DNA of 63,899 nt, counting the filler, from Folioceros fuciformis (lineage: Eukaryota): the NCBI GenBank assembly GCA_049999805.1. It is 5 parts of 5 records of this genome, joined end to end, with 100 filler letters (N's around TTAATTAATTAA, not from the genome) between each part and the next. Parts side by side here need not be neighbours in the genome. Positions count along the whole stretch, not along the records: positions 1 to 31,992 come from JBNGIO010004574.1; 4 more parts are not named here. One strand, written 5' to 3'. The notes under the pieces were generated by a model. It saw only the letters and a program-made list of their open reading frames with translations, ran no database searches and had not been told where the DNA came from. Of the stretch, positions 20,958 to 25,806 are shown in pieces. Numbering within the stretch: the stretch's first letter is position 1; each line of letters opens with the position of its first letter. The position numbers and the translations under genes were made by a program.

Positions 20958-23154
20958 GGCGCAGCAAACCAGAACCTCCCACCAGAGGCCACCAGCTGGA
21001 AATGTGCCACTTCTACTCTACAGCTGCATCATCGCCGCATCCAGAAACCCAGCATGCAAGGACAACAGCAGGATGGACGCCTTGCTTGCTCCAGGACGCT
21101 TGTGCACTAGCATCCGTCGTGCAATACAGCGGTGAAGGTGGAGCGGAACAAATCATTCCTGATGTTCCCTGCAGGAACATATGATTGCGCCTGTACCACG
21201 GTTGCCGGTCCCAAAGCCCACAGGTGGGTCTGTGTCTAATGTGGGGCCACGTCGGAAGTGGACTCCTCCAGCTGGCTGCTGCTGGCCGACGCGTCGGCTA
21301 CGCCAAGTCCTAACACTGTTTAACCAACCCGTTGGTAACCCGCTACCGTCCAGTCTGCCGTCCACCAATTTGCACAGGGTACGTGACACGATCGCCACCT
21401 CCGAGCTTGGGACGGAGATCTCAAAAATTTCAAGCCGTTTGGAAACTTTGGCAACTCCGGACACTGGTGCTCGCAATCCGCCAAGGAAGCCACTTCTGTG
21501 AAAGCTGAACTAGTTTGACCTCTGGACTGACACCTGTCTCAGAAGTTCAAGCCTTTGGGCTCTGTCATGGTACGGTGGAGGAGTGCGCCCATCTCGACTT
21601 TACTGTCGACGGCCCTTCTCCTTGCACATAACAAACAAAAGTGGGGTCTCGTCAAGTACATGTTCCGAAGTCTGATGCGCTTTTCCGGAGAAATCCTCTC
21701 AAAAAAATATTTGAGACGACAGCCTTTGGGGATCGCGTCAAGTGCGACAATTGTAGCAGAACTTGCGTCGAGTGCAACATCAAAATCTACACGGTAGGGG
21801 ATTCCACCGTAGCACGCTAGCCTATCTACGACCTACTCCATCTCAGGCTGATTTCTCTGGAAGGTGGACGATGCCCATGAGCTCCTTTACCTGGGCTGCA
21901 CTTCCCCCATCTCTATGCCATGACAAACAGTTCCATCCCGCCACAGCCAAGAACACATGCGCACATAATCAGCAACGTATGGAGGATGCAAAACATGAAA
22001 CGACCACCCACTTTGCTATTGGACAATGCTACGCAAAAACTGGCATTGCACTTTCACGTGTAGGAAAGGAGGAATGAGAAGCTTGAGAAACAGCAATGGA
22101 AGACGAGAGACAAGATTGACTGGCATGAACTGTGTAAGTCTGTTGCGAAAAACAAACTTCGTCCTTGGCTGAGCAAATGGAAGGTGGACATACACAGCCA
22201 GAAAGTGACAGCAGCCTTAGAAAGGGTTTACTGCAAAGACATACATGATTACAAGTCACTCATGCGAGAACATGATTCGTGAGCCTTTCTTGAGGAGCAT
22301 CAGCGCAAAAAGCCTCCGAGATCAGGATTCGCTGCATGTCACGTGTCGTCATGGGCATCTAAGCAAGGGCGAATTGCAAACCCATTACCAGCCATGTGAA
22401 AATTGATAAAACCTCAACAAGCTGTGTCTTCCTGCTATGTGTCGTCTTGATCATCTGACCATGCACACCAAGCATTCTTTACTTCCACCAATCACCCCAA
22501 CTTGTGCATAACTCAAACGCAAGGAGCTTCACAGACATCACAGCCAGCAAGGCAAAGAGAAGACCCAAGTCCAGCACAACGCATGGCGTTGAACGAAAAT
22601 GCTATACAGACACTGCCAAGCATTGAAGCATTGACATTACAAAGTCAACAAAGATGTGGTCCAGAATAAGAACCCCCATGCTTATCTCTCAAGCTCATCA
22701 TCCGGCCAACATCACCCTACAGAACAAAATTGGACTGGAAGGTGCACTAATCCGCTGTTTCCTCAGATATACAGCTAATCTGGCTCTGATGATAAACGGG
22801 TATGCTTCCTCACTGTTTCGGGGCTTTCTAGATATCCTCAGAAAGCCACGACCCTGCACTCGCATCATAGTTAACCCAATCAATTATCATCACAGAGCCA
22901 AGTGCCTGCACTTGAACCAAATTTCATATGTCAATTGCCAGAAAACTAGCAATCCATCAACCACCAGCCTACCAATCAACCAAGCAGTCCGCATTCAGCT
23001 CCGACATCAACTGGACAAATGTCACTGGCACAAACCCAAACCGCCAGACCACATCACGCCACGCCACGCCACGCCACGCCACGCCGCACCAATCCACAGG
23101 AAAAAAACCAGAACAACTAGGGCAACAAAATCTCACCCCAAAGTTTTTTGACCA

Positions 23155-23502
23155 CTACCGATCTGGAGAAGAATGGCAGAGCGTACCCTGAAGAAGAGGA
23201 GCAGCGAAGGAGCTGGTACTCAGCCTTGACACCAGCCGAGCAGTGGCCATAGCAGTGTGCAGCGGCAGCAGGGACTGCGCACACGCGATCCGCGGCACAG
23301 ATGGCCTCCTCAACCGGAAACTGGAAGCTCCCACACCAGCATTCGAGGAGGAGAACTCAGAAGCGGCCGCAGTCCGACCAGTCGAGATGCCTGGAGCTTG
23401 GGACTCTACTCTAATTAACGAGTGCGCAGCTCTACTAGATTGGCAGGATCTCGCCACTGACACAAAAGACCTCCGAGCCGCCCTTCCGACCACGCCCGCC
23501 AT
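23155..23502 (-). CDS. NOXY2/NUCLEAR FUSION DEFECTIVE 6-like small organellar protein (read-through isoform; splice donor after 23187)
   Basis: Ser/Arg/Ala-rich presequence-like N-terminus followed by the family motif AQSLLPLHTAMATARLVSRLS...LQGTLC. Confidence 0.85.
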   Translation of the reverse strand: MAGVVGRAARRSFVSVARSCQSSRAAHSLIRVESQAPGISTGRTAAASEFSSSNAGVGASSFRLRRPSVPRIACAQSLLPLHTAMATARLVSRLSTSSFAAPLLQGTLCHSSPDR

Positions 23503-23679
23503 GGATTGTGCGGATTGCAGCTCCTGCGACGCGAATATGATGGATTTCCGTCTGTTTCGCCTCTTACCGTTTTACTCTCTGACTATGCGAATTCTGGATT
23601 CCGCTCGTCTCTAAACCCTAAACCCCTGCCCTACAGTGAGGACGCACGCACGGTGAAGTGCCTTTTGCGGAAGCTGAGC

Positions 23680-25806
23680 TTAAATCTCTAGCCTTGAAAA
23701 GTAGCTGGAGTTCCTGATGAGCAAAGGCTCCAGATGAACGTGAGCACCGTTCGTGAAGGGCAAAGATGCATGAGAAGATTCTGAGACGTGCGTCTCCCTT
23801 CGCATATTTGCCCATAGCACTTCTATTGTCCTCAGAAGTGCTGCACTTTGCTGGTGCGGCCCATCTCCTGCCACGAACGTATGCACCTTCTTCTCGAGCT
23901 CAATCCAGCTCTGCCCTCGCTCCTTCCATGCGGTGGCTTGCTTTCTCAGCTGGTCCACTTGGATGGCGCAATCCCACATGCCAGCTTGGGCATAGATGTT
24001 TGACATGAGCACGTAGGCAGAAGCGTGTTGTGGCTGTAGGCGGACTGCACAGTCGAAGGCCTGTCTCCCAAGGGCGACGTTCTTGTGCTTCCGGCAGGCA
24101 CCAAGTAAAGACAACCACATAGCTCCGTCTGGCTGAATGGGCAATCGCAGGAGCAGGTGCAGTGCCTGGGTCAAGAGGCCTGCACGGCCCAACAAGTCGA
24201 TGACGCAGGCATAATGCTCCAGAGCAGGAGGGATGTGATGGTCCTCGCTCATGGATGCAAAAAACTCCAGCCCTGCGTCCACCATGCCCCCATGACTGCA
24301 GGCGGACAGGATGGCAAGGAATGTGATTCCGTCTGGGCTTGTGCCTTGCCGGCGCATCTGATGAAAGGAATGCACGCACATTTCCGGTAATCCTTGACTG
24401 GCATACCCTGCTATCAGTGCGTTCCAGGATACTACATCAGGCTGGGGCAGTGAGTCGAAGACAGCCTGCGCGTCCACCATGCTCCCACATTTGCTGTATG
24501 TGTGAATAAGTGAGTTTGCCAAACTGAGGCTGGTGAATACACAGCTCAGTATACTGCGATGGACCTGACGGCAGGTATGGAGGCTGCCGGTAGTGCTGCA
24601 AGCTCTGAGGACGCACAGATACGTTGATTCCTCTGGTTTGAACGATTCTGCTTGCATCCGAGCATACAGTCCAAGCGCTTTCTCTCCTTGGTCCTGATGA
24701 GCATAGCCTGCAATCATCGCTGTCCATGACACAACATCCCGCTGGGACTGCCCTTCGAACACTAGGTGGGCATCTGAAATGCTCCCACACCTGGAGTACA
24801 TACTCACCAGACTGCTACTTACAAACTTATCCGATGCATAGCCCCGTCGAGCAGATTCAGCATGAACTGCCTTCCCCCTCTGCAGACTCCCTACTTTAAC
24901 AGACTCACCATCCACCGAAGTACTCCCCTCACTTTCTGCAAGGATAACACAAGCCTGCAGCAGAGCCAAACATGTTCGATCGTCCGGGCTTACACCTGCC
25001 TCTTGCATTCGACAATAAAGCTGGAAAACCCTCTCTCCTTCTCCATGTTGAGCATACCCTGCCAGCATCGCATTCCAAGACACTACACTCCGGTGACACA
25101 ATCCGTCAAACACCAGCTGTGCATCCCCGATGCTCCCACACTTTGCATACATATCCACCAGACTGGTGCCTACGTACAAGTCCGTATCACATCTGTGCCT
25201 AATCACGTCAGCATGCATCCGAAGGGCTTGTTCCAGGTCCCCCAAGTTGCCACATGCCTTGAGCAAGCCAAGAAACGTGTGTCTGTTGGGCTGTATCCCT
25301 TCTTCCTCCTGCATCTGCTGGTACGTGCTCAAAGCCTCTCCACATTTTCCTGCCTTGGTATACCCAGCAATTATGGCGGTCCAAGAGTAAACAGTCCTCT
25401 TACCCAGCTTGTGGAAGACCTGGAGCGCATCGTCCAGGGCCCCGCAGCTGACCAGCGTAATGACCACAGATTCACCCAACTCGGAGTGCGAATCGAACCC
25501 ACTTCGCACAAGGTGAGCATGCACTCGCTTAGCCTCCCGAAGGACCGTCTTCCGTCGGCATGCGTGCAACAGGTACCCATATACTTCCACCGAACACGGG
25601 CAACCCTGCATGTCAAAACCATAGAGAACATCTACTGCCCTGTGGAGCAGTCCGGCGTCACATAGTTGTTTCATCCGAGACAGAGATGAGCACAGATCAT
25701 AATCCGGTAAGCAGCTCGAGGCCACAAAACTGCCACCACTGCATCGATTCCTGCCGTTCACCTTGTCAGGAAGTCCAAAGATTGGCTGCAACGTGTTTGA
25801 AGCCAT
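23680..25806 (-). CDS. PLS-class pentatricopeptide repeat protein with E/E+ domain and no intact DYW domain, intronless
   Basis: 708-aa ORF with repeated MY.KCG / VVSWNAM.AGY motifs, EHYAC.IDLLGRAG, AYVLMSNIYA and SWIE...HTFVAGD; no HSE/CxxC deaminase motifs. Confidence 0.95.
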   Translation of the reverse strand: MASNTLQPIFGLPDKVNGRNRCSGGSFVASSCLPDYDLCSSLSRMKQLCDAGLLHRAVDVLYGFDMQGCPCSVEVYGYLLHACRRKTVLREAKRVHAHLVRSGFDSHSELGESVVITLVSCGALDDALQVFHKLGKRTVYSWTAIIAGYTKAGKCGEALSTYQQMQEEEGIQPNRHTFLGLLKACGNLGDLEQALRMHADVIRHRCDTDLYVGTSLVDMYAKCGSIGDAQLVFDGLCHRSVVSWNAMLAGYAQHGEGERVFQLYCRMQEAGVSPDDRTCLALLQACVILAESEGSTSVDGESVKVGSLQRGKAVHAESARRGYASDKFVSSSLVSMYSRCGSISDAHLVFEGQSQRDVVSWTAMIAGYAHQDQGEKALGLYARMQAESFKPEESTYLCVLRACSTTGSLHTCRQVHRSILSCVFTSLSLANSLIHTYSKCGSMVDAQAVFDSLPQPDVVSWNALIAGYASQGLPEMCVHSFHQMRRQGTSPDGITFLAILSACSHGGMVDAGLEFFASMSEDHHIPPALEHYACVIDLLGRAGLLTQALHLLLRLPIQPDGAMWLSLLGACRKHKNVALGRQAFDCAVRLQPQHASAYVLMSNIYAQAGMWDCAIQVDQLRKQATAWKERGQSWIELEKKVHTFVAGDGPHQQSAALLRTIEVLWANMRRETHVSESSHASLPFTNGAHVHLEPLLIRNSSYFSRLEI

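Follow-up and report, generated by a model that had tools for sequence, protein, structure and literature searches.

Here we describe a NOXY2/NFD6-like gene on the minus strand of a 63,899-nucleotide (nt) stretch of DNA from Folioceros fuciformis (assembly GCA_049999805.1); the whole stretch, five parts joined end to end, is called the window below, and the gene lies in the part taken from JBNGIO010004574.1 (positions 1 to 31,992). We consider it likely that this is an ordinary nuclear NOXY2/NFD6 gene in which the choice of splice site at a single phase-1 junction adds one of several inherited tails to the protein. Assembled contigs reveal that the locus uses alternative 3′ splice sites sharing one donor: contigs of one public run (X1) connect the donor after position 23187 with 22853 and 22454, and those of another (X13) connect it with 22853 and 22905, all with GT..AG ends. 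Three of the five acceptors predicted at this locus are in use, across two organisms.

Coding exon 1 (23187–23502, minus strand) opens with an ATG at 23502–23500, holds 105 codons plus one base and ends in phase 1 at CAG G/gtacgc, the GT of this donor lying at 23185–23186. Tails were predicted with a script that took the minus-strand interval from 23186 to 21800, which has 82 AG dinucleotides, and attached whatever follows each AG to the last exon base (23187, phase 1). Five peptides, each closed by a stop codon, came out as an earlier note on this DNA had proposed: GWWLMDC (22946–22968), GTWLCDDN (22880–22905), GSWLSEDI (22828–22853), DDQDDT (22435–22454) and DAHDDT (22339–22358), of 23, 26, 26, 20 and 20 nt, respectively. 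The phase-1 donor and the read-through peptide GTLCHSSPDR (23155–23187, stop TAG at 23157–23155) were likewise reproduced, whereas a sixth in-phase tail, EMGEVQPR (21887–21912), had been overlooked; it would be made if the last-exon acceptor at 21912, which is used in X1, were joined to donor 23187. All four tail classes are found in phase behind the phase-1 junction or the AG sites of this one locus. Among 2000 dinucleotide-preserving shuffles of 23186–21800 (1387 bases), none reached the three G-W-L tails observed (mean 0.005 per shuffle) or the pair of D..[DE][DG]T tails (mean 0.0005), nor did any contain E.G...PR. Because the patterns were drawn up with the tails and homologues already in view, these figures overstate the significance somewhat. 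The tail set is not due to chance, and the earlier view that the look-alike tails exceed chance expectation holds for either tail family.

Splice choice was compared across four public runs (X1, X2, X9 and X13) in the form of assembled contigs, which show presence and not absence and whose depths cannot rank isoforms. All nine placed contigs of X1 are at least 99% identical to the window, and X2, X9 and X13 are relatives, mostly 90–95% alike. X1 behaves as cDNA, with zero cover at 22856–23119 and with minus-strand joints that have GT..AG ends. Contigs of all four runs cover coding exon 1. The joint from 23187 to 22853 occurs in X1 (depth 22, contig sides of 427 and 30 letters) and in X13 (depth 4), that from 23187 to 22905 in X13 (depth 5.2, short side 27) and that from 23187 to 22454 in X1 (depth 18.9, short side 29). 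Splicing of donor 23187 to five acceptors, as first proposed, is borne out by contig joints for 22853, 22905 and 22454, but not for 22968 and 22358. Removal of the last intron is recorded by a joint from 22245 to 21912 in X1 (depth 10.1; CT..AC on the plus strand) and by a similar joint in X13, and the read-through form by an X1 contig at 23136–23215 (depth 15.3).

The listed acceptors open one long alternative exon (22245–22853, minus strand) of up to 609 nt, which ends at the donor CAT/GTATGT after 22245. In X1, a single contig (record 4) covers 22852 to 22426 without a gap, records 3 and 4 together tile 22245–22852, and record 2 (21883–22274) retains the last intron unspliced. Because the X1 contigs are unbroken from 22853 to 22245, the proposed exons are alternative 3′ splice sites of a single exon, with a stop close behind each. 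The terminal micro-exons of the earlier note have to be given up: the contig continues for 427 nt past acceptor 22853, the next used donor is at 22245, and the locus shows no internal exon of about 51 nt or less with a nearby donor. The GTLCHSSPDR form probably arises through an alternative 5′ splice site and not through plain intron retention. A second donor (23135–23137, minus strand; exon end 23137, GT at 23136–23135, G/GTGAG), 18 nt past the read-through stop, is suggested because the read-through contigs of X1, X2 and X9, which cover 23136–23216, all terminate at 23136 or 23137, and because a loose end of X2 at 22854, reverse-complemented by hand, is read-through sequence joined to acceptor 22853. 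In the last exon, the EMGEVQPR stop lies within a strong donor-like CAG/GTAAAG (21885–21892, minus strand), which record 1 of X1 reads across and which is unused in that contig.

Sequence searches place the open reading frame (ORF) in the NOXY2/NFD6 family, an assignment that we regard as sound. In a full HMMER scan (phmmer), 12 proteins match it at E ≤ 0.001, among them Cryptomeria isoforms named 'NONRESPONDING TO OXYLIPINS 2, mitochondrial' (E = 8.5e-07 for P0004), a Dioscorea 'NUCLEAR FUSION DEFECTIVE 6' protein (E = 2.1e-04 for P0008) and Sphagnum proteins. A profile search collected 745 proteins, many of them named NFD6 or NOXY2, and an Atlas feature search returned an NFD6 cluster at rank 2 (score 0.93). 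Pfam gave no family for the 115-residue ORF, as expected of a family without a Pfam model, and a single-sequence word-index search with the ORF gave no match at E ≤ 0.01. A second NFD6-like copy inside the window was not found by tblastn (next best match, E = 0.96). NFD6 and NOXY2 are both named after Arabidopsis mutants, the former after a nuclear-fusion phenotype, and we know of no molecular function for either. None is given in the available passages of PMC8358658, which describe mitochondrial aggregation and insensitivity to the oxylipin 9-HOT in Arabidopsis noxy2.

The window protein carries the family core S-L-L-P-L-H-x-A-x-A-x-A-R-L-x-S-x-L-S, within which S77-L78-L79-P80-x-H82 is conserved across the family; all 40 aligned family sequences have S77, P80, H82 and L94, and L81, A86, A88, R89, S92 and S95 occur in at least 90% of them. 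AlphaFold2 models one helix (residues 75–100) and a disordered remainder, at a mean predicted local distance difference test score (pLDDT) of 55, which is low confidence; the score for the block of residues 81–90 is 83. Residues 1–32, which are predicted to be disordered, include six Arg, six Ser and six Ala and zero Asp or Glu, a composition that would fit the make-up of an organellar presequence. The gene product is predicted to be a probable mitochondrial protein.

Tails of the same classes are annotated in other land plants. We surveyed 269 family proteins, with isoforms drawn from ten 90%-identity clusters and from the matches of a bryophyte-weighted profile search; the collection is biased, so that the counts speak for presence only. 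The read-through type accounts for 152 of the 269 (plus 13 with extensions), E.G...P[RS] for 29, D..[DE][DG]T for 18, a bare GT for 15 and the G..W.. type for three, and 39 have other endings. Several tails can come from a single gene, as in Arabidopsis AT4G17310 (GTLCCTSPDL, ELGLSVPR and GT), Brassica rapa, Camellia, Theobroma and Nicotiana; the earlier note was right that isoforms annotated for angiosperm relatives can be told apart by their final residues alone. The read-through class (GTLC..SP..) is found in seed plants and Sphagnum, and the ten-residue window peptide resembles GTLCCTSPDR of Cryptomeria, GTLCCTFPDR of Ginkgo, NTLTHMSPDR of Sphagnum and GTLCCTSPGL of angiosperms. The E.G...PR class is found in angiosperms, the eight-residue EMGEVQPR being matched by EMGLSIPR in Dioscorea and by angiosperm ELGLSVPR and E[LMF]GLSVPR. 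The D..D[DG]T class is shared by angiosperms (DGIDGT, DGIDDT) and mosses (DDCDDT, DDDDGT), and the G..W..DD. class is found in mosses. Conservation of the tail types in bryophytes, which the first reading had left to be checked, is borne out by moss proteins that end in DDCDDT or GGLWIIDDS in Physcomitrium and in DDDDGT, DDEDGT, GGMWIIDDS or GTLTHISPDR.. in Sphagnum. On this evidence the D-x-x-D-D-T tails of the window correspond, in our reading, to the D tail of angiosperms and mosses, and the G-x-W-L-acidic tails resemble moss GG[LM]WIIDDS. The two-residue GT tail of angiosperms might be a truncated G-T-W tail.

We propose that the protein consists of three parts, namely a basic, disordered, presequence-like N-terminus, one conserved helix and a tail of 6–10 residues. 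The coding exon stops in phase 1 immediately past the predicted helix, and splice-site selection is proposed to pick the tail. Use of the second donor, 50 nt beyond the first, would yield GTLCHSSPDR. Joining donor 23187 to 22905, 22853 and perhaps 22968 in the long exon would yield the G-W-L/acidic tails, joining it to 22454 would yield DDQDDT, with DAHDDT perhaps arising from 22358, and skipping the long exon in favour of 21912 would yield EMGEVQPR. The net charge of the core (I72–Q105) plus tail runs from +2 with the read-through tail to −2 with DDQDDT, and such differences in charge may alter the partners, sorting or stability of a small mature organellar peptide. Translation and a function of the tails are suggested by the conservation of their length, residues and stop position. 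Since each tail type matches isoform tails of relatives, the switch appears to have been inherited, in large part from an ancestor among the early land plants, with this lineage appearing to have multiplied two acceptors only. Every tail class turns up in two or more major lineages. A bolder version of this proposal, which we put forward tentatively and think somewhat more apt to fail than to hold, is that a multi-way C-terminal switch of 6–10 residues on a one-helix mature peptide of about 45 residues has been kept by splice-site choice since early land plants, and that the tails can stand in for one another as codes that direct sorting, turnover or the binding of partners in mitochondria or plastids. 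If true, this would be among very few protein-coding alternative splicing events of early land-plant age.

Several observations weigh against the proposed choice among inherited tails. The RNA evidence comes entirely from assembled contigs of runs whose kind ('RNA?') is a guess, as it is for all 22 runs listed, none of them recorded as RNA, and the short side of each joint from donor 23187 spans 27–30 letters. Contigs of X1, X2, X9 and X13 contain no joint to 22968 or 22358, so that GWWLMDC and DAHDDT remain candidates from the script; nor do they contain a direct joint from 23187 to 21912, and the EMGEVQPR isoform is accordingly predicted from sequence likeness only. Most database isoforms are automatic predictions, and the match between the window G-W-L tails and moss GG[LM]WIIDDS is short (G, W, an aliphatic residue and two acidic residues). 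A further objection concerns the last intron, as by the usual rule a stop codon lying more than 50–55 nt upstream of an exon junction makes a messenger RNA (mRNA) a target of nonsense-mediated decay. The GSWLSEDI stop lies 583 nt upstream of the 22245/21912 junction, that of DDQDDT 190 nt and that of the read-through form about 627 nt of mRNA, and EMGEVQPR is the only tail without such an upstream stop; at such distances of 190–627 nt, decay is expected once the last intron has been removed. Regulated unproductive splicing, in which the long exon 22853–22245 is a 'poison' exon whose inclusion leads to mRNA decay, the tails are by-products and EMGEVQPR or the read-through form is the productive one, is the main competitor, although an unlikely one. 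It gains from the purine-rich GAY repeats that code for the D tail, a type of sequence that acts as exonic splicing enhancer, and from regulation of the event in a relative: SR-protein mutants change the splicing of Arabidopsis AT5G47455, according to the legend of S7 Fig in PMC5362245. A mere decay switch, however, would have no need for tails whose length, residues and stop position stay alike between mosses and angiosperms; all 18 of the D..[DE][DG]T tails have six residues and all 29 of the E.G...P[RS] tails have eight, although the patterns themselves fix these lengths. Moreover, X1 record 2 retains the last intron, and the forms that include the long exon in X1 (depths 22 and 18.9) do not fall below the read-through form (15.3), contig depth being a poor measure. 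On balance we favour isoform-specific C-termini on a helical organellar peptide of about 45 residues over unproductive splicing.

Much less probable is that the joints reflect splicing noise, with a weakly defined long intron offering many AG, some of them used by accident, and giving look-alike peptides without a role. The 22 nt that precede the acceptors indeed have poor polypyrimidine tracts, and joints are lacking for two of the five proposed acceptors, but the observed tails appear in 0 of 2000 shuffles, acceptor use recurs in a second organism (X13), the tail classes are shared with moss and angiosperm annotation, and the G-W-L region is more conserved in relatives than exon 1. We give equally little credence to the reading of the earlier note, in which separate terminal micro-exons arose by recent duplication as a lineage-specific cassette of alternative last exons. 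Shared DNA between the 22905 and 22853 units, and between the 22454 and 22358 units, speaks for it; against it stand the 427-nt contig run past 22853 and the tiling to donor 22245, which leave no small exon, the age of the tail classes (both occur in mosses, and D also in angiosperms) and the just 15 of 61 columns that are invariant among the three G-W-L units.

What is peculiar to this locus is the number of copies, with three G-W-L acceptors and two D-tail acceptors. In DNA alignments, AGTGCAGG..C.TGGCT is common to the units at 22905 and 22853, both of which open 26-nt reading frames, and the two D units (22454 and 22358) share ATG..CA.GACGACAC and are identical at 38 of 76 columns, most densely over the 20 coding nt. 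Local duplication of the extra acceptor copies is plausible, not proven. Recent exon duplication is not supported as the origin of both tail families, the D and G-W classes being old; only the extra copies look local, and their DNA likeness is modest. The stretch of the three G-W-L units is less diverged among relatives than its flanks, with 6 differing letters of 192 in X2 (22825–23016), compared with 30 of 429 at 22426–22854 and 52 of 490 at 23187–23676 (exon 1 and 5′ untranslated region (UTR)); the corresponding values for X9 are 8 of 170, 32 of 451 and 51 of 490. These differences suggest some constraint on 22825–23016. Rfam gave no match at E ≤ 1 across 21500–23800, and the predicted fold of 22820–23020 (z = −2.17; 6 of 200 shuffles fold equally well) is too weak for a claim of structure. 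Within the tails, relatives have G>C at 22949 (plus strand) in GWWLMDC, hand-read as Cys to Trp. In organisms B and C the 22454 tail ends ..QDGT before its stop (hand translation of a loose end), which we take as the same [DG] alternation as in other plants, and in organism D the 21912 tail reads EMGEMQPR before its stop (hand translation of the 35 letters between the sides of the 22245 joint).

Other features of the alternative intron and of the relatives' contigs were also recorded. A (GGCGT)x6 microsatellite occupies 23056–23085 (minus strand) inside the alternative intron, where 23018–23097 was skipped as a repeat in contig placement, and across 23017–23114 the relatives are shorter and unalignable, with 74 (X2) and 70 (X9) letters for the 98 of the window. 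X13 has two joints without GT..AG, 22919/23156 (AA..AC, skipping 236, depth 6.1) and 21967/22075 (AT..AA, skipping 107, depth 4.1), which may be deletions in the relative's genome or assembly artefacts. A 230-nt contig of X2 matches 41 nt (22834–22874) and continues with 186 unlike letters; it may represent a paralogue or another junction in the relative.

On the 5′ side, a 708-residue PPR protein with an E motif (23680–25806, minus strand; PPR_2, E = 7.2e-58; E_motif, E = 6.9e-10) is encoded on the same strand, its gene ending 178 nt before the NFD6-like ATG. As one X1 contig (record 7, 1964 nt) spans both genes, their transcripts or UTRs may overlap. On the 3′ side, about 0.9 kb downstream of the last NFD6-like exon, an ATG-led frame with a Ser/Glu-rich start (around 20955, minus strand) is probably the next gene and would bound the 3′ end of the NFD6-like gene.

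Public databases already annotate the family together with its tail isoforms, and the use of alternative 3′ splice sites is a textbook mechanism; the feature is an old, little-studied one of a known gene family and not a new invention. A literature search found no published description of the tails or of their conservation, although supplementary lists of conserved splicing events could include the gene. The tail motifs occurred in no paper found by the search, and the NOXY2/NFD6 family was not among the matches listed for conserved alternative splicing in land plants; a string match to the core motif in an mRNA-display paper was unrelated. The sharing of several tail classes by bryophytes and seed plants looks unreported. 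At this locus all the tail classes follow a single phase-1 junction and three acceptors have RNA support, in a plant far removed from mosses as well as from seed plants; this suggests that tail variation in the family is deliberate and inherited. If so, knock-out or complementation studies may overlook or hide some of the function when they use only one cDNA or tag the C-terminus. The gene is also a compact test case for whether very old plant alternative splicing acts via protein variety or via mRNA decay.

Finally, the locus can be set beside the systems that it most resembles. Angiosperm NFD6/NOXY2 genes (AT4G17310 and AT5G47455; RefSeq X1–X7 isoforms in Brassica rapa, Camelina, Camellia sinensis, Theobroma cacao, Nicotiana and Ziziphus) share with the window the core helix motif and the break after ..Q, and their tails run parallel, GTLCCTSP[DG]L to GTLCHSSPDR, E[LMF]GLSVPR to EMGEVQPR and D[GDE][IVT][DE][GD]T to DDQDDT. 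Unlike the window, angiosperms have the additional two-residue GT tail, and a G-W tail occurs in just one of them (Ilex, GFWGIKDS), compared with three G-W-L acceptors here. In the moss members (Physcomitrium patens P0211–P0213 and Sphagnum P0207–P0210), isoforms of one gene or orthologue differ in the tail only; their G-W tail has nine residues (GG.WIIDDS), whereas those of the window have seven or eight (G.WL..D.), and identity to the window protein across the whole exon is 34–54%. The long-intron events of plant SR-protein genes, as far as the available part of PMC1636356 describes them, are likewise a splicing pattern shared by bryophytes and flowering plants. Those events are described there as tuning the levels of splicing factors, whereas the alternatives in the window are short coding tails on a small, predicted organellar protein.

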